From positions 1 to 28,145 of IMG/VR virus record IMGVR_UViG_3300026196_000020: 28,145 nt of DNA; one strand, 5' to 3'. The notes beneath the pieces were generated by a model. It saw only the letters and a program-made list of their open reading frames with translations, was not told the origin of the DNA and did no database searches. A program made the position numbers and the translations under genes. Of the stretch, positions 496 to 27,184 are shown in pieces (within the stretch, counting starts at the first letter, position 1; every line of letters starts with the position of its first letter). Source of the stretch: a virus. Its lineage: Duplodnaviria; Caudoviricetes.

Positions 496-827
496 TGTTG
501 AATGATTTGTTAGCTTTCCCGTGGTGGGCGCTGGCGCTAATGCTGGCAGGAGCTGCTGCGATCATTTGGTTGGTGGTGTGGCCCATTGCGTGGGTGGCGA
601 TGTACGGGGTTGGGAGCACCATCTTCCATGCACTCACGGTTGATTGGAGTAAAACAAAAACGAAGCCATTGACGCTGGCAAAGTACCTGCTATGGAAGTG
701 GCCGATTGCCGGAATGAAGGAGGCGTTGATTTGGCCAGCAGAAAGCGTTACTTCCGGTACGTGGAAGTGGACACCACTGTTTGGATACAGCAAAAGGGAA
801 AGGCTGATGGAGGTAGATGATGAGTGA
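492..827 (+). CDS. hypothetical membrane protein (probable domesticated cassette gene)
   Basis: Hydrophobic N-terminal segments; GTGA overlap with ninB; N-terminus LNDLLA is encoded by an attC-arm remnant. Confidence 0.6.
   Translation: MMLNDLLAFPWWALALMLAGAAAIIWLVVWPIAWVAMYGVGSTIFHALTVDWSKTKTKPLTLAKYLLWKWPIAGMKEALIWPAESVTSGTWKWTPLFGYSKRERLMEVDDE
497..515 (-). other. attC remnant (R''-spacer-L'' arm only)
   Basis: Minus strand AGCTAAC AAATC ATTCAAC, nearly identical to the arm of the complete site at 24909 (AGATAAC AAATC GTTCAAA). Confidence 0.55.
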
Positions 828-1185
828 ATTGAGAAAGCTGGCGGCGGAACTGGCTGAAGCTGCAAGAACGCATGATGAGACGCATCTATTCGATTCGGAG
901 ATAGTTGCAGTCGAGAAAGCCCTAGCCACCGAGCAGGAGCAAGAGCCTGTGGCGTTTGATGTTCGAGTTGGGCAATTAAAGGCATCTAATGGGACAACGC
1001 ATGTTGTGTCAGTAAATCACCCAATGCGAAGCAAGGATGCCGAGCCTTGGGATTATTCTGGCCACATTGAATTGTGGAATCTCGACGATAAAGAGCAGGC
1101 TGAACAAATGGCCTCAGACGTTCGCAAGGTGCTGAACATGGCTCCACTCTACGTCCACCCACGACAGGAGAACGGTGATGAGTGA
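817..1185 (+). CDS. hypothetical phage protein with EPVA...PLY modules
   Basis: GGAGG RBS; EQEPVAF and PLYVHP motifs typical of lambdoid early accessory proteins. Confidence 0.65.
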   Translation: MMSELRKLAAELAEAARTHDETHLFDSEIVAVEKALATEQEQEPVAFDVRVGQLKASNGTTHVVSVNHPMRSKDAEPWDYSGHIELWNLDDKEQAEQMASDVRKVLNMAPLYVHPRQENGDE

Positions 1186-1447
1186 CTTGAGAAAGAACGT
1201 GACGAAACAAACAGAAAACACTGAAACAGAAACCCGCGCCGACCTATCAGGTAAAAACGAGCGCCTTGTTATGCGCTGCCGCCTTGAAGTGATAAACGAG
1301 ATTCTTGGCGATTCGGTATTTTGGGAAGGGACTAAAGACGAAACCCCAGGCATTCGTAACATCCCGGGACGAATGGTTGCCGAAGCGGTGTTCAGGACCG
1401 GCAAAGAACAAAATATGGGCATGTGGCACGGATTTCCGTGCGCATAA
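1175..1447 (+). CDS. hypothetical protein, cassette-derived
   Basis: AGGAG RBS; stop TAA lies in the core GCATAAC; NERLVMR is encoded by an attC arm. Confidence 0.6.
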   Translation: MMSDLRKNVTKQTENTETETRADLSGKNERLVMRCRLEVINEILGDSVFWEGTKDETPGIRNIPGRMVAEAVFRTGKEQNMGMWHGFPCA

Positions 1448-1448
1448 C
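1268..1448 (-). mobile_element. gene cassette-like unit with truncated attC
   Basis: Perfect 9-bp inverted cores GTTATGCGC (1268-1276) and GCGCATAAC (1440-1448). Confidence 0.55.
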
Positions 1449-1464
1449 GAGAGGGGTAATTTGC

Positions 1465-1743
1465 ATGAATGAATTAGAAGTGATTGTAATTAGCGGGTTC
1501 CTAGCAGTGGCAGTGGCACTAATCATTGCCGTCATTGGTGGTATTGCGAATAGGCTTGAAGAAGATCGTGACGCAGCTCTAGAACGCGTCGCAGGACTGG
1601 AGGAGCAATTAGCTATCGCGTATATGTCCGGCGGCGCGGACATGCGGGAATCTTTACATAAGGAAAAGCAGCGCAATAAGGAACTGGCGTACAAGTTAAA
1701 CAGTGCTACCCGAAGGTTAAAGGAGGTAGATGATGCCAAGTGA
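1465..1743 (+). CDS. hypothetical membrane-anchored coiled-coil protein
   Basis: GAGGGG RBS before ATG 1465; one TM segment then a charged helix. Confidence 0.6.
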   Translation: MNELEVIVISGFLAVAVALIIAVIGGIANRLEEDRDAALERVAGLEEQLAIAYMSGGADMRESLHKEKQRNKELAYKLNSATRRLKEVDDAK

Positions 1744-2353
1744 TACCGAACAGCAGCGAATGAACATTGCGGCAGCGCGTGTGCAAGGTTGGGGTAAAGC
1801 GTTCGCACACTTAATTGTAGATGATGGGACGTTCAACATATTTGATGAGTCCAAACCATACTTAATGCGCGTGGTGAAGAAATTGTTCGATGAGTATGAG
1901 TTGGATATAAAGAAGCAGAACGGACAGTTTCTGTGGAGTGTTCGTTTCGCCGTTGGGCAGGGGTTTTGTGATGGTGTGGCGGACACGCTAGAACAAGCCG
2001 CAGGTGCAGCGGCAGAGTATGTGGCGGATACGCTAGGACAAGGACCGACTCAAGAAGTGTACGAGCAACGCATGGATGAGCTTGAGGCAGACAAGGACGA
2101 CCTGCTCATCCGCATGCAGAAAGACGCTGGAACATTAGATGAGGCATTGCATTGCCTGCGCCACATGGAGAGGCGCAACAAGGATCTGAAGGCGCATGTT
2201 GAGCGGCAGAAGAAAATCATATCTTCACTCCGGCACGCACTCCTAGGCGTACTTCAAGACAACCTGCCGATGGATGCTTGTCGAATGGAGCAGGTGAACA
2301 GAGCGCTAGATGATGACGAAGAAGCCGCCCCTGGCTCCAGCGCAGCGGCATAG
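1730..2353 (+). CDS. hypothetical protein with C-terminal coiled coil
   Basis: AGGAGG RBS, 207 aa, overlaps the previous gene. Confidence 0.65.
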   Translation: MMPSDTEQQRMNIAAARVQGWGKAFAHLIVDDGTFNIFDESKPYLMRVVKKLFDEYELDIKKQNGQFLWSVRFAVGQGFCDGVADTLEQAAGAAAEYVADTLGQGPTQEVYEQRMDELEADKDDLLIRMQKDAGTLDEALHCLRHMERRNKDLKAHVERQKKIISSLRHALLGVLQDNLPMDACRMEQVNRALDDDEEAAPGSSAAA

Positions 2354-2633
2354 ATTGATAAAATCATGTAAGATAAGTAAGTCTGTAATAGATTGCTCAA
2401 GGGAACAAGGAACGTCCGCTGGAGTACACGTTATGCAAAATTTTGTATTTGTTTACATCTTTAACGGTGATTACCGCTGCCTTGGAATTAATGAGGCGCA
2501 GACAATCGGGAAACAATTAATAAAAGAAGGCTGGAAGCACACTGCCACCTTGAACCCTGAAACATGGATAGAATTTATGTTAAATGGCAACGAAACACAG
2601 AGATTTGAGGCTATTGAGTCTATCTCTGCATAA
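2310..2633 (+). CDS. hypothetical cassette protein (start uncertain; in-frame ATG 2433 lies in the core site)
   Basis: AT-rich; GGAG before ATG 2433; stop lies in TGCATAAC. Confidence 0.55.
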   Translation: MMTKKPPLAPAQRHRLIKSCKISKSVIDCSREQGTSAGVHVMQNFVFVYIFNGDYRCLGINEAQTIGKQLIKEGWKHTATLNPETWIEFMLNGNETQRFEAIESISA

Positions 2634-2634
2634 C
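2430..2634 (-). mobile_element. gene cassette-like unit
   Basis: Perfect inverted cores GTTATGCA (2430-2437) and TGCATAAC (2627-2634); minus-strand arm GCATAAC GTGTA CTCCAGCGGAC resembles R''-spacer-L''. Confidence 0.6.
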
Positions 2635-2667
2635 ATATATTACACGTCAGATGTGGCGTATAGTCTG
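2630..2667. repeat. 38-bp direct repeat copy 1, putative attI/dif-like cassette entry site
   Basis: ATAACATATATTACACGTCAGATGTGGCGTATAGTCTG, 37/38 identical to 3413-3450. Confidence 0.9.
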
Positions 2668-2758
2668 GCCGGCTGTTATCCGCTCTTGGTGCGGGATTCA
2701 TCTTATTTTAGCAACCCGATCACTAGCGCATTGAATCACTGAGACAGAGGGAGAAGGA

Positions 2759-2911
2759 ATGACCGTAATAGAGTTGCAAGAAAAGCTGAGCGACCTGCCT
2801 CCAGATGCCACCGTATCTTGTGGCACGAATGGAAATGACGTGATTATTGTTTTCGCCATTCTTGGCTTTGTTGCCTTCGTCATATGGCTGGCACTGAGGG
2901 GTGATGAGTGA
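2759..2911 (+). CDS. small hypothetical membrane protein (50 aa, not in ORF track)
   Basis: GAGGGAG RBS; MTVIELQEKLSDLPPDATV followed by a TM segment; TGATG coupling to the next ORF. Confidence 0.55.
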   Translation: MTVIELQEKLSDLPPDATVSCGTNGNDVIIVFAILGFVAFVIWLALRGDE

Positions 2912-3063
2912 TGAGTGAAGATTACAAAAGAGCGAAAACTCTTGGGCTTACCGATAAATATAGGTTTATCGACGCTTGGAACTCACAGGCAGACGAATCC
3001 AATCAGTGGCACGAACTTGACACCGATGAAGGATTGGGAAAATACAAACATCTTCCTGAGTGA
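2911..3063 (+). CDS. small hypothetical protein (50 aa, probably a truncated chimera)
   Basis: MSEDYKRAKTLGLTDKYRFIDAWNSQADESNQWHELDTDE...; coupled start. Confidence 0.5.
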   Translation: MSEDYKRAKTLGLTDKYRFIDAWNSQADESNQWHELDTDEGLGKYKHLPE

Positions 3064-3088
3064 CTTCGAGGCTACGGATTGGGTTTAC

Positions 3089-3168
3089 GTATAACGAATT
3101 AGCTTAGCGGCTGGCGCTTTCTGCCAGTCCGAGCGACCAAAGGGAGCGCTTATAGCGCCTTATTATAC
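3089..3168 (-). other. attC-like recombination site (80 bp, one core degenerate)
   Basis: Minus strand GTATAAT AAGGC GCTATAAG...CGGACTGGC-loop-GCCAGCCG CTAAGC TAATTC GTTATAC; imperfect hairpin with extrahelical bases; R'' reads AAT instead of AAC. Confidence 0.65.
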
Positions 3169-3185
3169 GTTTTTTGGAGATAGCA

Positions 3186-3416
3186 ATGAAACTCAGAATT
3201 AAGCATGTAAAGAATGTTGGCTACTTTGGGCAGGTGAAAGATGGTTTTCTTTCTGGCTGGAAAACTATTGGCAAACACACAAGCGGTTACGGGCTTTACC
3301 CAAACAATCACGCGGCGCATCCGTTAGAGACTCAGCACGCGGCGCTTGAGAGGTGTAAGTTATATGAACAATGGGCTTACCACAACGCGCAGGAGCCGAC
3401 ATATTTTTACGTATAA
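3186..3416 (+). CDS. hypothetical cassette protein
   Basis: GGAGA RBS; bracketed by TTATACGT (3163-3170) and ACGTATAAC (3409-3417). Confidence 0.65.
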   Translation: MKLRIKHVKNVGYFGQVKDGFLSGWKTIGKHTSGYGLYPNNHAAHPLETQHAALERCKLYEQWAYHNAQEPTYFYV

Positions 3417-3450
3417 CATATATTATACGTCAGATGTGGCGTATAGTCTG
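3413..3450. repeat. 38-bp direct repeat copy 2, putative attI/dif-like site at the convergence of transcription
   Basis: ATAACATATATTATACGTCAGATGTGGCGTATAGTCTG; internal hairpin TATACGTCA-GATG-TGGCGTATA. Confidence 0.9.
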
Positions 3451-3471
3451 AACTGTTCGATTGTCTTGACG

Positions 3472-3843
3472 CTACTTGCCTAGTTTGCCGACCATGTGCG
3501 CAGCAAAGTAAAAACCGATGATAATCATAAACGGCGTAGTCACTACATCTGCCATGTACTGAGCAGCGAACTTTGCAAATGTGGTATGCTGTAGTGCCTG
3601 CGCCGCTAGAATTGCAAGACCCACTGCCATCCACATAAAAGTAACAACAATGGCGATGATGCGCCTAGCAATGTTCTGACCTTGCGTCGCCTTCATCCAC
3701 TCCAGCTTGAAGTCCAGTATCTTCTGATTGGCAACGGACTTTTCCTCATCAGTAAAGAACAGGGCATCAGCCCCCTTCATTACGCCATCAACAATCTTGT
3801 TGGTCGTGTCTCCACCACCGAATAAACTTGCCAGCCATCCCAT
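3472..3843 (-). CDS. holin-like membrane protein (GTA 3TM holin-like)
   Basis: DALFFTDEEK motif, two C-terminal TM helices, directly downstream of the endolysin. Confidence 0.65.
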   Translation of the reverse strand: MGWLASLFGGGDTTNKIVDGVMKGADALFFTDEEKSVANQKILDFKLEWMKATQGQNIARRIIAIVVTFMWMAVGLAILAAQALQHTTFAKFAAQYMADVVTTPFMIIIGFYFAAHMVGKLGK

Positions 3844-3844
3844 A

Positions 3845-4297
3845 TCAGCCTCCCGTACTCATTATTCCATGCTCATAGTGTACGCCATCCTTGGAAAAGA
3901 AAGCGGTCTTGCATTCTCTGCGGTTGCGGCCTTCCTTGTGCGATACATGCACCCATTTACCCTCATAGATCAGTTGGTCGTACTCAATATCGCTTGTAGC
4001 AATCCACTGAGCAACTTCTAAAGGGGTATGTCCGAAAATGTGGAAGTCTGCCGCCTGACCCCTGGTGTGCTGTGATGCCGGATGACTTCCGATAGCTGCA
4101 TTCAATTCCTGCGAGCGGTAGCCGGATGTGATGATGATAGGCTTGGCATAGTGCGCCCTTACTTTCTCCAGCACATTCTTGCACAATGATTCTGCTGCCG
4201 GAAAGAACTGCGGAGGCAAATGGTTATCAATGCACTTCCTTTCCGCTGTCTCGCTTGCTTCAAACTCTGCGATTGTGATGTGTGGTGATAGATGCAT
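3845..4297 (-). CDS. endolysin, peptidase M15 family
   Basis: ITSGYRS..LN, SQH..GQAADF and WVHVS zinc-binding motifs. Confidence 0.85.
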   Translation of the reverse strand: MHLSPHITIAEFEASETAERKCIDNHLPPQFFPAAESLCKNVLEKVRAHYAKPIIITSGYRSQELNAAIGSHPASQHTRGQAADFHIFGHTPLEVAQWIATSDIEYDQLIYEGKWVHVSHKEGRNRRECKTAFFSKDGVHYEHGIMSTGG

Positions 4298-4298
4298 A

Positions 4299-4619
4299 TT
4301 AAAACCCCATCTTTGCGCGTAGCCAGTGGAATGCAGATGGAATAATAAAGGCTAATGCTGTGAAGATAAGACCAATAACTGCCATTACACCAGCCCAAAA
4401 ACTAAGCTGGCTGGCTTTCCATTTTTCCAGTGTGGACACACGTTCTTGAATTTTATCTGCGAACTTCTTGAAATGCGCTATCGCTTCAACTATGTCATTA
4501 GAGATTGATTCATCCCTGCTATCCATAGCGATTATTTTTTCTTTCATAACAGCAACGTCAACGCGAATGTCTGAGATTATTACGTCGGATGATTTATGCT
4601 CATGACCTTCATTTCTCAT
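4299..4619 (-). CDS. coiled-coil protein with C-terminal TM helix, lysis-module membrane protein
   Basis: RVSTLEKWK followed by a hydrophobic helix; upstream of the endolysin. Confidence 0.6.
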   Translation of the reverse strand: MRNEGHEHKSSDVIISDIRVDVAVMKEKIIAMDSRDESISNDIVEAIAHFKKFADKIQERVSTLEKWKASQLSFWAGVMAVIGLIFTALAFIIPSAFHWLRAKMGF

Positions 4620-5247
4620 CGCGCAAACCCCACCACAGAGTCACACAGTTATTTCTCCATGCCCACATTTCACCCACCTTAGCATTCAATTTATTTTCAA
4701 CCTTTTCGCTGAACTTTTTGCCAGTTGCAATAATCAATGAATCGGATGGAACGCGATTTACTACGGTGAACTCACCATGATGGAAGCCATACACCTTACC
4801 ATTGCACCAAACAGCCGATCCTTGAGTAGCGCGACCCCAAAGCGATAAGATGAATCCTAAGAGGCTATGAGGCTTTTTCGTTACCCTATACAGCATTCCG
4901 GCCTTCGGCTTCACTGAGGCTATATCGTAGCTTCTGAACCATGCATACAGCAGCCACGGCATGAAGATTGCCACGTTTGCAATCAGCAATGCCGTATTGA
5001 ACGCGCCATTAGTGAGATATTGGACTAACTCCCACCATTCAGACAACATGAAAATGAAGGCAATATTTTTTGCAAGTAAAAAAGTGTACGGAACCAGCCA
5101 AACGATAAGCATAGAAATCACGGCCATCTGTAACAGTAGGCCAATCACATAAGCATCATATTCATTCAGGCCAATGCCTGAAAAATGCAAATTGCCTAGA
5201 GTCGTGTCCAGGATAACGAAACAGGCAAGCGCATATTTATGGTTCAT
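4609..5247 (-). CDS. multi-TM membrane protein with soluble C-terminal domain
   Basis: About four hydrophobic segments then a domain ending WAWRNNCVT. Confidence 0.65.
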   Translation of the reverse strand: MNHKYALACFVILDTTLGNLHFSGIGLNEYDAYVIGLLLQMAVISMLIVWLVPYTFLLAKNIAFIFMLSEWWELVQYLTNGAFNTALLIANVAIFMPWLLYAWFRSYDIASVKPKAGMLYRVTKKPHSLLGFILSLWGRATQGSAVWCNGKVYGFHHGEFTVVNRVPSDSLIIATGKKFSEKVENKLNAKVGEMWAWRNNCVTLWWGLRDEK

Positions 5248-19585: not shown

Positions 19586-21783
19586 TAGCTAGACACAGCC
19601 CCGATAATACGCCCTGTCTCGTCGCGCTCAACAGAAATGGCTTTAGGCTGACGCATTTGCTCCATCATGGCGTTAATCATCATCATGGGGTCGGGCTTAT
19701 CTTCCATATCGTCGCCTTCTTCCATGTCGCCTTCCATATCATTCTGCTTGCTCATCTGTGCAATCAGTACCTTGGTGGCGTTCTCCAGTTCAGTTTTCCA
19801 GCGATCAAACTCTAGCCTTGCAGCCTCACGCTGAGCCTCATGCTGCATCTTAATCTGCTCCAACTGAGCCTTGTTAGCCTCGGCCTGCTGAGATACTTGA
19901 GCCTTGCCCATCTCAACCTGACCATCAGCCTGCACCTTCATCTGCTCAATCTGCGACTTGGCTTGAATGTCGGCACTAGCCTGTACTTGCTGCAACTGCT
20001 GTTGATGCTGTGCCTGCATTTGCTCCATCTGCTGCTGCATCTGCATCATCTGAGCCTGTCCGCCGTCGCCCTGCTGCTGTGCGTTCTTTGCCTGCTCCAT
20101 AGCTTCATCAAACGCACCCTCGATCGTTCGGCCAACCTTGAAACCCCTAACGCCGAACATCAGCATCTCGCCAAGCAACGGGATCATTGCCGGAGCCTGC
20201 GCCCCAACCTCTGCCGATTGCTTCAGGAATGAGCCGGCTGCCGTAAGGAACTCCATGCGCGACTGCTTCTCTTTCTCCTGATCCATCGCAACCAGCGTAT
20301 CAACGTCAATCTCGATGCGGAAGTTACGCATAGGCTCATCAGCGATAAGCTGTAACGCTGCCATGATAGCCTCAGGGCTTTCCGTCTGGTCAACGCCGGA
20401 CATGGATACCAAAGTCTCGGGCTGGTACTTGGTGCAAATAATCTCTGCCTTGATGCGTAGCAGGTCTTGAGCGAAACGCCCTACATCAGCCTGCATCTCT
20501 TTCAATCGTAGCGAGGCATAGTTGGTCTTAATCTGCTGTGCCGTTGCTGTCTCGTTTGCGTTGGTAGCACCACGAATAACGTCGCTGATACCTGTTATCT
20601 CGTAAATCGTCTGCTTGACCTGCTCACGCATTGCGGTCAACTGAGTGACTACAGTGATAACCTCGCCCAATGGCATGAAGTCAACAGCACCCTTAAGCCC
20701 ACCCTTCTCGCCAAACGCAGCCCATGAATCAACAGGGATAAGCTGATTCTCAATGCCTTCATCCAACATGCGCTTCAAGCCTGTCTGCGTGGAGTCGTAA
20801 ACACCTATAACCTTCAACGCTTTCATCAGGTTATTGATGCGTGATGTTAGCTCGTTAAGCTCACGGTCTTGGTCTTGATACAGGATGTAATCAGCAACCG
20901 GAGTCATGCAGTCAGTCGTGATGGTGGCATACAAAGGTTTAGGGCAAGGGAAAAAGCATTCCAACTCTAGCGGATCGTCACGCCTGTCCAGGAACTTAGG
21001 ATAGCCCTTGCTTACCCAATACACCTTTTTACTGGTCTTGCACCATATCTCCCATACTTCGGCGCGTTTGTTCTGCGTGGAAACCAGCTCTTTGTCCTCA
21101 ACGCCCTTCTGAGCGACAAGCAGCGGCACATCGGCAAACTCAGGACCAAACCTCTCGATGCCCTTGTCTCTCGACATATACACGCGCCGAGCAACCCACT
21201 CAACTTCTTCCCAAGTCCGAGCCGGAGAACAGAGAAAGTCTTTCCAGTAGACATAATCACAAGGGGATGATTCATTGGAAACAGTGGGGTAATTCTCATC
21301 CTCAACGTCCTCGCTGATCATCGCTTCGCCATCTGCCTGAGTCTCGTCCAACTCCATGCCGTCGGCTTCCATTACATCAGCGTGGAAGCGTACCCATGCC
21401 GTGCCGCGACCAGGCAACAGCCTGTCTAACACCGCAGACCTCATCGCTGTGTCATAGTCGCTGTTCTGCTCTACCTCAAACTCAAGACATCGCTCGATAA
21501 TTAAAGATGCTACCCTTGCAACAGGGTCGCGGTCTTTGAATCTACGGCTTACGTCAGGCTTCGGAAGATTCCCATATAGTGCGGACTTGAGCGTGTTGAC
21601 ATTGCTCCACAGGATATTAAAGCGCGTTTCATCGCGAGCACCATCCCTGTCATCACGATACCGCTTGACAATCTTGGTTCCCTTCTCACGGAAAGAGGCT
21701 TCCTCCTTCGTGGCACGCTCAATCTCTTTTGTCCAATGAGCAACGGTTAAATTCTTTGACTTGCTTTCGGTTGACTGGTCCAT
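19585..21783 (-). CDS. portal protein (P22-like, long Q-rich C-terminal barrel)
   Basis: 732 aa after TerL; FNILWSNV, EITGISDVIRG and ETATAQQIK motifs. Confidence 0.9.
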   Translation of the reverse strand: MDQSTESKSKNLTVAHWTKEIERATKEEASFREKGTKIVKRYRDDRDGARDETRFNILWSNVNTLKSALYGNLPKPDVSRRFKDRDPVARVASLIIERCLEFEVEQNSDYDTAMRSAVLDRLLPGRGTAWVRFHADVMEADGMELDETQADGEAMISEDVEDENYPTVSNESSPCDYVYWKDFLCSPARTWEEVEWVARRVYMSRDKGIERFGPEFADVPLLVAQKGVEDKELVSTQNKRAEVWEIWCKTSKKVYWVSKGYPKFLDRRDDPLELECFFPCPKPLYATITTDCMTPVADYILYQDQDRELNELTSRINNLMKALKVIGVYDSTQTGLKRMLDEGIENQLIPVDSWAAFGEKGGLKGAVDFMPLGEVITVVTQLTAMREQVKQTIYEITGISDVIRGATNANETATAQQIKTNYASLRLKEMQADVGRFAQDLLRIKAEIICTKYQPETLVSMSGVDQTESPEAIMAALQLIADEPMRNFRIEIDVDTLVAMDQEKEKQSRMEFLTAAGSFLKQSAEVGAQAPAMIPLLGEMLMFGVRGFKVGRTIEGAFDEAMEQAKNAQQQGDGGQAQMMQMQQQMEQMQAQHQQQLQQVQASADIQAKSQIEQMKVQADGQVEMGKAQVSQQAEANKAQLEQIKMQHEAQREAARLEFDRWKTELENATKVLIAQMSKQNDMEGDMEEGDDMEDKPDPMMMINAMMEQMRQPKAISVERDETGRIIGAVSS

Positions 21784-23081
21784 AATTCGTCTAGTGTTTG
21801 CTCCTCAAAGAATTTTGCCTTATCGGCTTCCGGCTCATCAGGTAGTTTCTCGGCTACAATCTGGCAGCCATAGCTGAATGCATCAGATGGGTGACTTGCC
21901 CAATTATGCTTCGGGTCGCGACTGAATACGCCAGAATCATCATTGTATTCATATTCCCATGCCCTAAGACCGTCTAATCCAGCCTCGCACTCATGCTCAT
22001 GGAATGCGCAGCGCTTGATAACGTCACGCGCTGCCTCAATCCGATCCTGCTTGCTTGTCTGAGGCACGATGCCAATCTTGTCGCCACCGAACCCCTTTAT
22101 AAATTTCTCTTGCGTGGTGTGCCTGCTTTGGAATGTCTTGGCCCTTGCGTCATGCGGTAGCCATATCCTGCCTAGCTTACAGTCCAGTGTGCCAAGAACG
22201 CTCTGAATGCGTGGTATCCAATCGTCAGCATCTAGCCCTGTGTCATGGTCGTACTTGAGGATATTGAAACCACCAAGCAAAGGCTGCCAGAACCACCAGC
22301 TAGCCGTATCCCTAAAGCCAATGTCGCTCGATACAAAGATTGGCGAGCCTTTAACGTCCGGCACAATCTCATCAGATATGCGACCATCCCTTGCAGCCTT
22401 GTTTACATGCTTGGCTAGGATAGCGCCCTGTGACTGACCGTACTCGCCACCCCATACATGGTCAGCCTTGTCCTCGTCATTGAGGTAATCAGCGAGCATA
22501 TCATCATAAAGCTCTGTATCACGAAACCAAGGGTTATCCTGCCAGCCTATCCGAACCGATATGGCATTATCCGGCGGACTATCGCGAAAGAACCTGTCTA
22601 CAGCGTCAGTCTTGTATCTAGGGTTCCAACTAAACCACATCTCAGAGCCTGGCTTGCGAATCGTAGGCCGTAGCAAATCAAGTGAGTGCTGCGAGAATGT
22701 CTGCGCCTCTTCCACCCATGCAAGGTCATAACCTTCAAGTGACTTGATGTTGTCCGCATTGTAAGTCTGCATACCTTTGAAGATGATAACTGAGCCATTG
22801 TGACCTCTTATCTCATCCTGCATGATGGTGAACATGCTCTCAACGCCAAGTGATCGTATCTTGTCCTCAATGAGTAGTTTTACTGAATCCTTGATCGAGT
22901 TCTGCACTTCGCGAATACAGACGATGCGCGTCTTTTCAGTTAGGCACCGTACAACACATTGCTCAGCATAGAAATGTGACTTAGCACCACCTCGCCCACC
23001 GTAAGCCCCTTTGTAGCGGCTAGCCTGCAATAGCGGCTTTAGCTTCCTAGGTACTTGTATCCGTAGGGTCGATGATTTCAT
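21747..23081 (-). CDS. terL: terminase large subunit (PBSX-type)
   Basis: YGGRGGAKS Walker A, AWVEEAQ Walker B, SWNP coupling motif, H.SDAFSY nuclease motif. Confidence 0.95.
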   Translation of the reverse strand: MKSSTLRIQVPRKLKPLLQASRYKGAYGGRGGAKSHFYAEQCVVRCLTEKTRIVCIREVQNSIKDSVKLLIEDKIRSLGVESMFTIMQDEIRGHNGSVIIFKGMQTYNADNIKSLEGYDLAWVEEAQTFSQHSLDLLRPTIRKPGSEMWFSWNPRYKTDAVDRFFRDSPPDNAISVRIGWQDNPWFRDTELYDDMLADYLNDEDKADHVWGGEYGQSQGAILAKHVNKAARDGRISDEIVPDVKGSPIFVSSDIGFRDTASWWFWQPLLGGFNILKYDHDTGLDADDWIPRIQSVLGTLDCKLGRIWLPHDARAKTFQSRHTTQEKFIKGFGGDKIGIVPQTSKQDRIEAARDVIKRCAFHEHECEAGLDGLRAWEYEYNDDSGVFSRDPKHNWASHPSDAFSYGCQIVAEKLPDEPEADKAKFFEEQTLDELWTSQPKASQRI

Positions 23082-24328: not shown

Positions 24329-24421
24329 CGTATATACTCCTCTACCTCTTCGCCGATAACCTCAAATATGCAATGCCTGTTTTTTATGCAAGTTGGGGGC
24401 TAACTTACATTGCACTTAGGG

Positions 24422-24437
24422 CGTATAATATATGTTA
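24422..24437 (+). other. third copy of the attI/dif-like entry site core
   Basis: CGTATAATATATGTTA, exact reverse complement of 3414-3429. Confidence 0.8.
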
Positions 24438-24926
24438 TCTGCCTAGTGCCTCTAGCGGCCTATCGGCTTTGATATACAGAGGGTGTCTTGGCTTGCCGTA
24501 TTTCGTAGTCCCGAGGCACATCAAGTCATGTGCTGCCAGCAAAGCCATTACCAGCTCATCACGTTGCATGTGTCCTCCGTGCGCTCCCCAAGCTCCCACT
24601 ATCACCCCTGCACCACGCGCCAAATCCATAAGCCACATATCATTGTCTAGCCCTATCGGTTCATCATGCGCCAGCATTGCTTTCGGGTCTGTTGCGCGTA
24701 GTGCGAACAGGTTTGCCATGTATACAGCGCCGTACCCCCAATCCGCCGCAAAACGCTTGCAGCGCCTTATTGTTGGGTCGTCCTCCCGTTCGTCTGCTGT
24801 GGACGGGTTCAGACCAATAAATAACGCATAGGGCGCGTTCTGCTCCCACCTGCGCCAGAGCGCATAGCGGTAGTTTCTGTCTGGAGAAAAAGCCGCCCCA
24901 ACATCGGCAGATAACAAATCGTTCAA
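24435..24926 (-). CDS. DUF1643 family protein (cassette gene)
   Basis: YRY.L.RRW, FIGLNPSTAD...DDPTIRRC, NLFALRATDP, AWG and PRHPLY motifs; AGGAGGT RBS before TTG. Confidence 0.9.
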   Translation of the reverse strand: MNDLLSADVGAAFSPDRNYRYALWRRWEQNAPYALFIGLNPSTADEREDDPTIRRCKRFAADWGYGAVYMANLFALRATDPKAMLAHDEPIGLDNDMWLMDLARGAGVIVGAWGAHGGHMQRDELVMALLAAHDLMCLGTTKYGKPRHPLYIKADRPLEALGR

Positions 24927-24969
24927 AATCGACCTCCTTTCAGTCGGCGCTTTAACTCAGCCGTTAGCT
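24909..24969 (+). other. attC site (61 bp)
   Basis: R'' AGATAAC, spacer AAATC, L'' GTTCAAAA with extra C, TCGAC/GTCGG stem, L' CTTTAAC, spacer TCAGCC, R' GTTAGCT. Confidence 0.85.
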
Positions 24970-25200
24970 GCCAACTTCTTCATGACTTTCAAGTGTTGAT
25001 TTAATCCCGTCATTATCTATTTGGTTAAACCGAATAAATGGAAATATATATTTTAAGAAATCCCCCTCAAACCAATAATATTTCCCGTTCAGTCTTACGC
25101 GTATATCTATCATGTGGCTTTGCGGGGCAATGTCTTTTAAGAGCTGGTTACTACCAAAGTTATCATCGCAGCTAACAATGCTATCAATCGGATTGCTCAT
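24964..25200 (-). CDS. hypothetical cassette protein (AT-rich)
   Basis: GAGGAGG RBS and ATG inside the attC; stop lies in the core GCAGCTAAC. Confidence 0.7.
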   Translation of the reverse strand: MSNPIDSIVSCDDNFGSNQLLKDIAPQSHMIDIRVRLNGKYYWFEGDFLKYIFPFIRFNQIDNDGIKSTLESHEEVGS

Positions 25201-25244
25201 TCGTCGTTCCTCCTCATTCTCAACCGCTTATAGCGGGGTTAGGT
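25170..25244 (+). other. attC site (75 bp)
   Basis: R'' AGCTAAC, AATGC, L'' TATCAATC with extra C, CGG-A-TTG/CAACCG with extra A, L' GCTTATA, GCGGG, R' GTTAGGT. Confidence 0.8.
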
Positions 25245-25257
25245 TGCGTTGTATTGT

Positions 25258-25533
25258 TCAAACCCACCCTCGATCTCGGATCTCGCGCTTTATCTTGCGC
25301 AGTGCTGACTCTCCACCTTTGATGGTGAATCGGACTTTCTCCGTAAACCAGCCCTTATCAACTTCCATCTCAAGCTCAAGACCTAGCACATAGCAGCGAT
25401 TCCGAAGGATGTTCGGAAACTTTGCCCAACGAGGTCCTTCTGCAACACTTCTCAAAGTACCAATTCGTTCTTCCATAACCTTACCCGCAGACGGTGCGCC
25501 AGCGGGGCTTTTTGCATCTTCAGTGTGTTCCAT
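25258..25533 (-). CDS. hypothetical cassette protein
   Basis: GGAG RBS and ATG inside the loop of the attC at 25473-25590. Confidence 0.65.
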   Translation of the reverse strand: MEHTEDAKSPAGAPSAGKVMEERIGTLRSVAEGPRWAKFPNILRNRCYVLGLELEMEVDKGWFTEKVRFTIKGGESALRKIKREIRDRGWV

Positions 25534-25590
25534 GTTTAGTTCTCCGTTTCTGGTGCAGCAGGCGCACCGCTGGTTAATTTCGCGTTATAA
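25473..25590 (+). other. attC-like site (118 bp, L'' degenerate)
   Basis: CCATAAC...AG-A-CGGTGCGCC pairing with GGCGCACCGCT, then GGTTAAT TTCGC GTTATAA. Confidence 0.65.
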
Positions 25591-25592
25591 CG

Positions 25593-26020: not shown

Positions 26021-26368
26021 CTATTCCCAGCAGCCCGTGCAGCTCCAGCAGTCCGTGCAGCGCGAGCAGCGCGAGCAGTCCGTGCAGTTCGTGCAGTTCG
26101 TGCAGTTCGTGCATTCCGTGCAGCCTGTGCATTCCGTGCATTCCGTGCATTCCGTGCATTCCGTGCATTCCGTGCATTCCGTGCAGCTCCAGCAGCCCAG
26201 GCATTCCGTGCAGAGCGTGCAGTTCCAGCAGCCTAAGTTGTTTTTGTTCTGTTCGACGTAATCAGGACGCTTAACCGCGAACGTTTTGCTTACACCGTTG
26301 ACGCGCTTGTCAGCACGTTCCCGGAATGCTTTAAAGCTCTCAAATATCTTTGTTTCAGCCGTCATCAT
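26021..26368 (-). CDS. cysteine-rich (Cxx)23 repeat protein
   Basis: GGGAG RBS, promoter upstream, 23 Cys at 3-residue spacing. Confidence 0.8.
   Translation of the reverse strand: MMTAETKIFESFKAFRERADKRVNGVSKTFAVKRPDYVEQNKNNLGCWNCTLCTECLGCWSCTECTECTECTECTECTECTGCTECTNCTNCTNCTDCSRCSRCTDCWSCTGCWE
26127..26185. repeat. 9-bp tandem repeat, six perfect copies within a longer degenerate array
   Basis: GTGCATTCC x6, encodes CTE. Confidence 0.95.
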
Positions 26369-27089: not shown

Positions 27090-27184
27090 TGGTACTCGTG
27101 GCTGGACTCGAACCAACATCGCGCCCTAATCTGGGGCATTTTACAGGGTATAAATCTGCCGCTCTACCATTGAGCTACACGAGC
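27090..27184 (-). tRNA. tRNA-Ile (anticodon TAT) with long variable arm, CCA encoded
   Basis: Acceptor GCTCGTG/CACGAGT, D-stem GCTC/GAGC, anticodon loop TT-TAT-AC, T-arm GTTGG-TTCGAGT-CCAGC, discriminator A, 95 nt. Confidence 0.85.

Follow-up and report, generated by a model that had tools for sequence, protein, structure and literature searches.

Bottom-strand gene cassettes in a phage genome, with probable translation starts inside their attC sites

Can an integron-type recombination site also serve as the start signal of the gene beside it? The question is raised by three small open reading frames (ORFs) in a tailed-phage genome (Duplodnaviria; Caudoviricetes; IMG/VR record IMGVR_UViG_3300026196_000020). 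The record is linear, is estimated to be 77% complete and was analysed whole, as a single window of 28,145 bases. Its cassette array lies among small minus-strand genes, upstream of the packaging genes, with the terminase large subunit gene at 21747–23081. From the sequence alone, the original prediction held that the plus strand is the top strand for the attC sites in this array while all three ORFs lie on the minus strand, each behind its attC, and that the attC provides the Shine-Dalgarno (SD) sequence, the start codon and the first residues of the protein. The account that fits best, and that is probably correct, is that of an integrase-less phage cassette cluster in which the genes lie on the bottom strand behind their own attC sites, genes 1 and 2 start inside the attC, and the cassettes are read together with the phage operon.

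attC sites and cassette genes of the array

Site 1 (61 bp, 24909–24969) and site 2 (75 bp, 25170–25244) share one layout: R'' is separated by a 5-nt spacer from L'', which is 8 nt long and carries an additional C as its fourth base on the plus strand, and L', a spacer and R' come next. In site 1, R'' reads AGATAAC, the extra C is at 24924 and R' reads GTTAGCT; in site 2, R'' reads AGCTAAC and R' reads GTTAGGT. Site 3 (25473–25590, plus) is a long, degenerate attC-like hairpin with a strong inner stem, a broken L box and GTTATAA as R'. Sites 1, 2 and 3 all open with TAAC and close with GTTA, in line with the RYYYAAC/GTTRRRY type. When the minus strand is taken as the bottom strand, L'' pairs with L' at all but one of 7 positions in each of sites 1 and 2 (6 of 7), as against 3 of 7 when the plus strand is so taken, and the inner stem of site 2 is paired at 5 of 5. 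At site 3, L'' and L' fail to form such a box (2 of 7 positions paired), and R'' lacks complementarity to the next core. Because site 3 is degenerate, its polarity rests on the neighbouring sites. The strand convention used here agrees with the published aadA7 bottom strand and, when applied to phage TJE1, gives classical sites with ORFs on the top strand for both attC sites detected. Minimum-energy folds of sites 1 and 2 in isolation lack the full attC hairpin, as expected from the imperfect arms of attC sites, and were left out of the evidence. An automated attC scan of the window detected site 2 only, and neither GenBank phages nor PLSDB plasmids contained a match to site 1. Two sites on the same strand, 200 nt apart (the limit is 4 kb) and with no integrase, make the locus a CALIN. 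Judged by their sequence, sites 1 and 2 have the canonical attC form, plus being the top strand; the predicted polarity thus stood at these two sites, through their pairing, but was not borne out by the L box of site 3.

Each of the three ORFs is encoded by the bottom strand and follows an attC; none is on the top strand upstream of one, as it would be in a classical cassette. The first (24435–24926, minus; 163 aa) encodes a DUF1643 protein (PF07799, E 1.8e-46; phrog_3230) and has a TTG start in L'' of site 1, the G of this codon being the extrahelical base (C24924). Its predicted fold is confident (pLDDT 90.5), with an alpha/beta domain and invariant NPSTA and HPLY motifs; no PDB match was found at E ≤ 0.001, either by sequence or with Foldseek. 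The second ORF (24964–25200, minus; 78 aa) has its ATG inside site 2 and belongs to a family of unknown function with 23 homologous proteins. The third (25258–25533, minus; 91 aa) may start at ATG 25533 or at ATG 25476 in R'', and its protein had no homologue among 3 candidates. For the 78-aa and 91-aa genes, viral contigs yielded only a near-identical copy of the present phage.

The predicted positions of the start signals were all correct. AGGAGGT (24932–24938, minus), in the variable terminal region of site 1, is spaced 5 nt from TTG 24926; GAGGAGG (25209–25215, minus), in the loop of site 2, is spaced 8 nt from ATG 25200; and GGAG (25545–25542, minus), in site 3, is spaced 8 nt from ATG 25533. 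The site 1 SD, which is partly paired in the predicted mRNA fold, is retained in L285, L473, L475, L480 and L489, and a motif related to the site 2 SD occurs in 13 viral attC sites. The location of the starts is further constrained by protein conservation. In DUF1643, invariant residues run from A11, and in the 78-aa family the invariant positions are D13 and G16, with no further ATG before residue 30. Since no start codon (in frame, for DUF1643) lies between R'' and these conserved cores, both starts must be inside the attC. The idea that the N-termini are translated attC arms is supported for ORFs 1 and 2, while for ORF 3 the observation is that both candidate ATGs fall in site 3.

The stops of ORFs 1 and 2 are likewise the TAA of the far core, as had been proposed, and the cores that carry them are exact 7-mer complements of R'' (GTTATCT at 24434 and AGATAAC at 24909; GTTAGCT at 24963 and AGCTAAC at 25170). 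In the first of these far cores, the R' of the target site (24434–24440, plus), TTA corresponds to the DUF1643 TAA stop and the crossover falls at G|TT. ORF 3 stops at TGA, 20 nt short of the next core. Units with complementary cores number 4 in the window, while 200 Markov-resampled windows averaged 0.51 and reached 5 at most.

The array starts 5 nt past the TAG of a co-directional upstream phage gene (25593–25895, minus), so read-through transcription is likely. Between 24200 and 26600, promoter-like sites (4, versus 2.6 in shuffles) and terminator-like sites (4, versus 2.2) were within the shuffle range. A perfect palindrome, GCGTTATAACGC, lies at 25579–25591, just after the stop of the upstream gene and at R' of site 3; it may be the original target site.

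Cassette borders and mobility

The DUF1643 ORF recurs in unrelated flanks, with 99% identity in locus L285 and 85% in locus L002. In one of them it presumably follows a DNA polymerase gene and in the other a Mu-like head gene, as judged by eye from motifs. In both loci, identity to the window ends 2 nt past the DUF1643 stop. Upstream, L285 shares 26 nt ahead of codon 1, SD included, after which the L'-spacer-R' arm differs; unlike the right border, which is at the core, this junction falls inside L'. In L002, the whole loop and arm differ from site 1, forming a distinct attC that again has an SD and an ATG in frame. With the arm replaced in L285 and both loop and arm different in L002, a plain R-box crossover does not explain the upstream borders. 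A contig from run X3, which belongs to another study, has the L285 form with both borders (24433 and 24952), and in run X4 cassette 2 is joined to a foreign flank that begins exactly before 24963. Exchange at the core G|TT is thus seen at the right border of DUF1643 in L285, L002 and X3 and at the cassette 2 border in X4. L284, which is as long as the window, and L001, L283, L302, L359, L470 and L499, which share one near-identical contig, were not counted as independent; nor were L002, L286 and L430, which are one contig. On these comparisons the units appear as mobile ones, and the upstream part of the hairpin as travelling with the DUF1643 gene.

In L002, a single cassette, that of DUF1643, sits at a phage gene's stop codon; L285 contains two further antisense units that have complementary cores and an SD and start downstream of the attC. 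A search for a cassette-free allele of the window array found none; R' of site 3 offers GTT 5 nt after the upstream stop. In L285 (about 1470–1500) and in contig 16 of X3, the attC is a hybrid in which the loop, L'' and R'' are those of site 1, the spacer and R' are foreign, and the joint lies inside L'. The L285 hybrid is compatible with an L-box crossover or a slippage deletion.

Orientation and start signals in viral and prokaryotic sequences

Orientation was surveyed with two bottom-strand attC patterns in partial scans of viral contigs and with one attC pattern in 2 of the 64 parts of GTDB, a sample rich in Xanthomonadales arrays. A filter for the L box, the stem and at least 400 nt of flank reduced the viral matches from 242 to 83 and the genome matches from 217 to 125. 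Classed by the longer ORF, and hence by length only, the viral sites comprised 41 antisense, 13 sense and 25 ambiguous cases and 4 with no ORF, whereas the prokaryotic genomes gave 5 antisense, 101 sense and 16 ambiguous cases and 3 with no ORF. Counted per locus, antisense, sense and tied cases numbered 37, 12 and 28 of 77 in viral contigs and 2, 53 and 9 of 64 in genomes. A bottom-strand ORF that ends at TAA|C with a full core complement was found at 27 of the 83 viral sites, compared with 4 of the 125 genome sites. The pattern was the same under a first, looser filter; Fisher values for the survey overstate certainty, as the sites are not independent. The survey, one of the checks suggested with the prediction, supports the view that the antisense layout is the usual one at phage attC sites and uncommon in prokaryotic genomes.

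A start inside the attC is not the general rule. Among 53 viral antisense cassettes with short sites, 1 has its SD and start inside the attC, 40 have them downstream, with the start 20–60 nt past R'', and 12 have neither, although SD-bearing sites are under-sampled in this set because the search patterns limit loop length. The proposal of a distinct phage cassette class is supported as far as the prevailing antisense layout goes, but not for SDs within the attC as a general rule. In unbiased viral sets, a TTG-frame ORF of at least 50 aa accompanies 4 of 9 SD-positive attC-like sites. Frames +1 and +2 were tried as a control and dropped, since the attC consensus itself closes them.

Pattern scans aimed at SD-bearing sites yielded 34 and 26 viral loci. 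From these 60, 25 with attC-like context were picked, L442 being excluded because it is cut by the contig end; among the 25, L470 is a copy of the present phage and L430 shares a contig with L002. The first scan gave 13 distinct matches that represent one attC type with an SD, an ATG and MLNDLL-like N-termini, and the type of site 1 precedes unrelated ORFs in L468, L473, L475/L480 and L489. N-termini of the NDLL kind, a survey of which had been proposed, recur at further viral sites. At 24 of the 25 loci the site is followed by an ORF of 51–205 aa, and these ORFs fall into 19 blastp families; in the other (L464), the ORF stops after 5 codons. Sixteen of the 24 ORFs end at TAA|C, 14 of them with a 7/7 core complement, and 20 of the 24 have no later in-frame start that bears an SD. 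Searches for the same motifs found 1 match, outside any attC, in 401 genomes of one class and none in 251 genomes of one phylum. The notion of the attC as a portable translation-initiation hairpin is supported for the SD-bearing types, which stand before 19 families, but not as a general rule, given the 40 of 53 cassettes that start downstream. Taken together, the SD-bearing attC is a genuine though minority subtype that probably launches translation.

An LNDLL-like N-terminus alone is not proof of attC origin, because SD-plus-LNDLL matches without an attC arm open long ORFs in 8 of 14 cases and the attC-free DUF1643 genes in L293 and L296 have the similar N-termini MNNLFS and MDDLLM. Such attC-free N-termini hint at a capture route. 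In L441 (1198–1245, minus), the SD/ATG half of an MLNDLL-type attC lies before an 89-aa ORF and the other arm is deleted, a possible domestication of the start signal.

Recombination, rival explanations and related systems

No tyrosine recombinase (PF00589) was found in the present record, which is linear and 77% complete, and the array is thus not a complete integron with intI beside it. The integrase would be supplied in trans or encoded in the missing part of the genome. Among 24 records with SD-bearing attC sites, a single one has an intI gene (TIGR02249), which makes 1 of the 7 near-complete ones; so does one of 29 further viral attC records, and none of the 6 near-complete among these. 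The complete phage G456 combines intI, an attI-like site (plus) and a first, classical cassette with subsequent minus-strand ORFs, of which five end at TAA|C, and with an MLNELL cassette. Within this phage, all of this lies in L493 (G456:C1:11000-19500) at 611–4800, along with two near-identical attC sites whose long loop, as in site 3, contains an SD and an ATG; the sites were read by eye, the automated scan having detected none there.

It is established that the attC bottom strand folds and is cut as a single strand at the core (PMC5027507). In the favoured account of an integrase-less cluster, an integron integrase acting in trans, from the host or from an intI-bearing phage, would recombine the bottom-strand hairpin at TAA|C. 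As the cut falls in the previous stop and each cassette has its own SD, start and stop, any cassette could follow any co-directional gene with frames intact and no promoter needed. Since L'' holds a TTG (TTGAA) and attC bottom strands are described as purine-rich (PMC5027507), the addition of an SD, either to the loop or as a bulge of the 3ʹ arm would suffice as a start signal. Crossover at the L box or slippage may act as well, as the hybrid and vestigial sites suggest. In a host integron, the antisense ORFs would face Pc and would need read-through from the opposite side or a promoter of their own. Some toxin-antitoxin cassettes also point backwards. Toxin-antitoxin cassettes are reported to have their own promoters (PMC13108822).

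Clusters of attC sites in phages are already known. Five of six phage attC sites recombined with IntI1, with the bottom strand preferred (Qi et al. 2023, PMC9892861), and like the phage CALINs described there, the window has at least two attC sites on one strand, no integrase and small accessory ORFs. However, at the two sites checked, the TJE1 array of that study follows the classical order, its ORFs being top-strand and upstream of the attC; the orientation result for the phages of Qi et al. is that for TJE1, P12002L not being resolved by the scan. The main text of PMC9892861 mentions neither antisense ORFs nor ribosome sites. With classical attC sites, as described by Nivina et al. 2016 (PMC5027507) and Cury et al. 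2016 (PMC4889954), those of the window share the R''/L''/L'/R' order, the extrahelical base in its canonical place, the G|TT crossover and an R'' complementary to the upstream core. Unlike the classical cassettes described there, the window cassettes have a bottom-strand ORF behind the attC, a stop in R' instead of R'' and an SD and start inside the attC, on a contig without Pc, attI or intI.

Other recombination sites are known to influence translation. In classical arrays, ORF-11 and ORF-17 in attI1 and short ORFs within attC are described as aiding re-initiation (PMC8876359). There, too, a recombination site gives translation signals to a neighbouring gene, but it does so through top-strand leader peptides and coupling, whereas the bottom strand of the window sites would give the SD, the start and the opening residues of the very protein that the cassette encodes. 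SALINs and attG sites (Loot et al., bioRxiv 10.1101/2022.09.11.507474) place cassettes outside integrons at short GWT-type targets, comparable to the cassette in L002; that work concerns classical cassettes in bacterial chromosomes and is not known to describe phage arrays or bottom-strand ORFs. A paper on a DUF1874 motif (PMC5737381) concerns, as described, a different element. The sites are of the attC kind, the cassettes are not classical ones, and no description of phage bottom-strand ORFs or of starts inside attC was found in the literature searched; supplements may show such cases unremarked.

Such an arrangement reverses the textbook cassette layout. A single 60-bp element would be the site of recombination while also ending the preceding gene and signalling the start of the following one, and part of phage genome mosaicism would be site-specific cassette exchange. 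Annotation tools that seek ORFs upstream of the attC, or that drop ORFs overlapping it by more than 50 nt (PMC7370490), would misassign or miss these genes. A protein-level signature, LNDLL-x with a last codon complementary to x, could be used to find them, and the units themselves would be small substrates on which the making of new cassettes can be studied.

A broader reading, with somewhat less than an even chance of being right, is that phages maintain a cassette system in which an attC subtype with SD, start and MLNDLL/LNDLL makes gene bodies self-translating plug-ins that integrases acting in trans shuffle between unrelated phages. A bare gene body would be fused in frame at R'', its stop would lie in R', and the integrase would come from the host or be phage-borne, as in G456. 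New genes would enter through natural starts of phage genes that look like L''-spacer-R''. If this reading were true, it would offer a route, open to testing, by which cassettes arise, a matter that has long been an open question.

It is unlikely that the hairpins, although derived from attC, are no longer integrase substrates and that phage recombinases or replication slippage at short shared sequences move the cassettes and the SD/start module. Such a scenario would suit the lack of an integrase in the contig and the few in related records, the degenerate site 3, the hybrid site in L285 with its junction inside L', the SD/start half without the other arm in L441, and the vestigial arms at 24408–24433, 2631 and 3414. 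However, TAA|C is the right border of DUF1643 in three contexts and of cassette 2, the 7/7 core complement is kept in 14 of the 24 ORFs of SD-bearing sites, and the L285 junction would also fit an L-box crossover. Moreover, in an alignment of 21 SD-bearing sites, in which the SD appears as an insert in the loop or the 3ʹ arm, the extrahelical base is kept and 97.5% of L-box cells are paired, compared with 26–46% in slid controls. Both-side changes occur in 17 cells at 2 L-box pairs (0 of 500 shuffles), a compensatory pattern to be read with the caveat that the search patterns fixed part of the 3ʹ arm and that the sites were chosen for an attC-like arm.

Still less probable is the view that the antisense cassettes are real but the SD-like purines and the TTG or ATG are by-products of the attC consensus and purine skew, with translation by re-initiation past the stop of the upstream gene or from other starts. 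The TTG and ATG do belong to the L'' consensus, bottom strands are reported to be purine-rich (PMC5027507), most antisense cassettes have a downstream SD, and the site 1 SD is partly paired. Against this, DUF1643 and the 78-aa family leave no start between R'' and their conserved cores, 20 of the 24 ORFs behind SD-bearing sites lack a later SD-bearing start, and a TTG-frame ORF of at least 50 aa follows 7 of 7 SD-bearing attC-like sites of the second scan versus 7 of 29 SD-less viral sites.

That minus is the functional top strand, and that these are ordinary cassettes in which the attC comes after the ORF and nothing but the bulge is unusual, is very improbable: core complementarity is symmetric and does not fix polarity, and inverted extrahelical bases are reported to switch strand choice and some wild-type sites to recombine the top strand at a low rate (PMC5027507), but the DNA past DUF1643 changes 2 nt after its stop while the upstream part of the hairpin is retained, the same patterns give sense ORFs at 101 of 125 genome sites, and in G456 the attI-like site and first classical cassette set plus as top, with further ORFs on minus.

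The cluster under study is accompanied by other cassette-like material in the window. Beside the far core, a vestigial attC-like right arm lies at 24408–24433 (plus), and the same motif follows cassette-like ORFs at 2631 and 3414; the site at 24408–24440, examined as a possible attI/Pc head of the array, resembles a vestigial attC arm. The sequence TAACATATATTA follows three cassette stops, at 2631 and 3414 (plus) and 24437 (minus), and looks like such an arm; two of the copies include a TATAAT-like hexamer that points back into the cassette. The TAACATATATTATACG motif has 20 viral matches, mostly unrelated to cassettes; matches in two other records, which represent one phage sequence, look cassette-linked. 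Further antisense cassette-like units lie on the plus strand at 1268–1448, 2430–2634 and about 3090–3417. The first two have GTTATGC...GCATAAC each, with an ATG in R'' and the R'-L' arm missing, and the third sits behind a full bottom-strand attC (about 3090–3150) with a mutated R''. An Rfam scan of the window matched a tRNA only; this tRNA-like match (27093–27184, minus; RF00005, 58 bits) is, at 92 nt, longer than usual. A 115-aa ORF at 26021–26368 (minus) is built from 9-nt tandem repeats that encode Cys-rich CTE/CTN/CSR triplets. Finally, two adjacent ORFs share nearly identical first 18 nt (820–840 and 1178–1198), which encode MSELRK and MSDLRK, and the second of them runs into half an attC.
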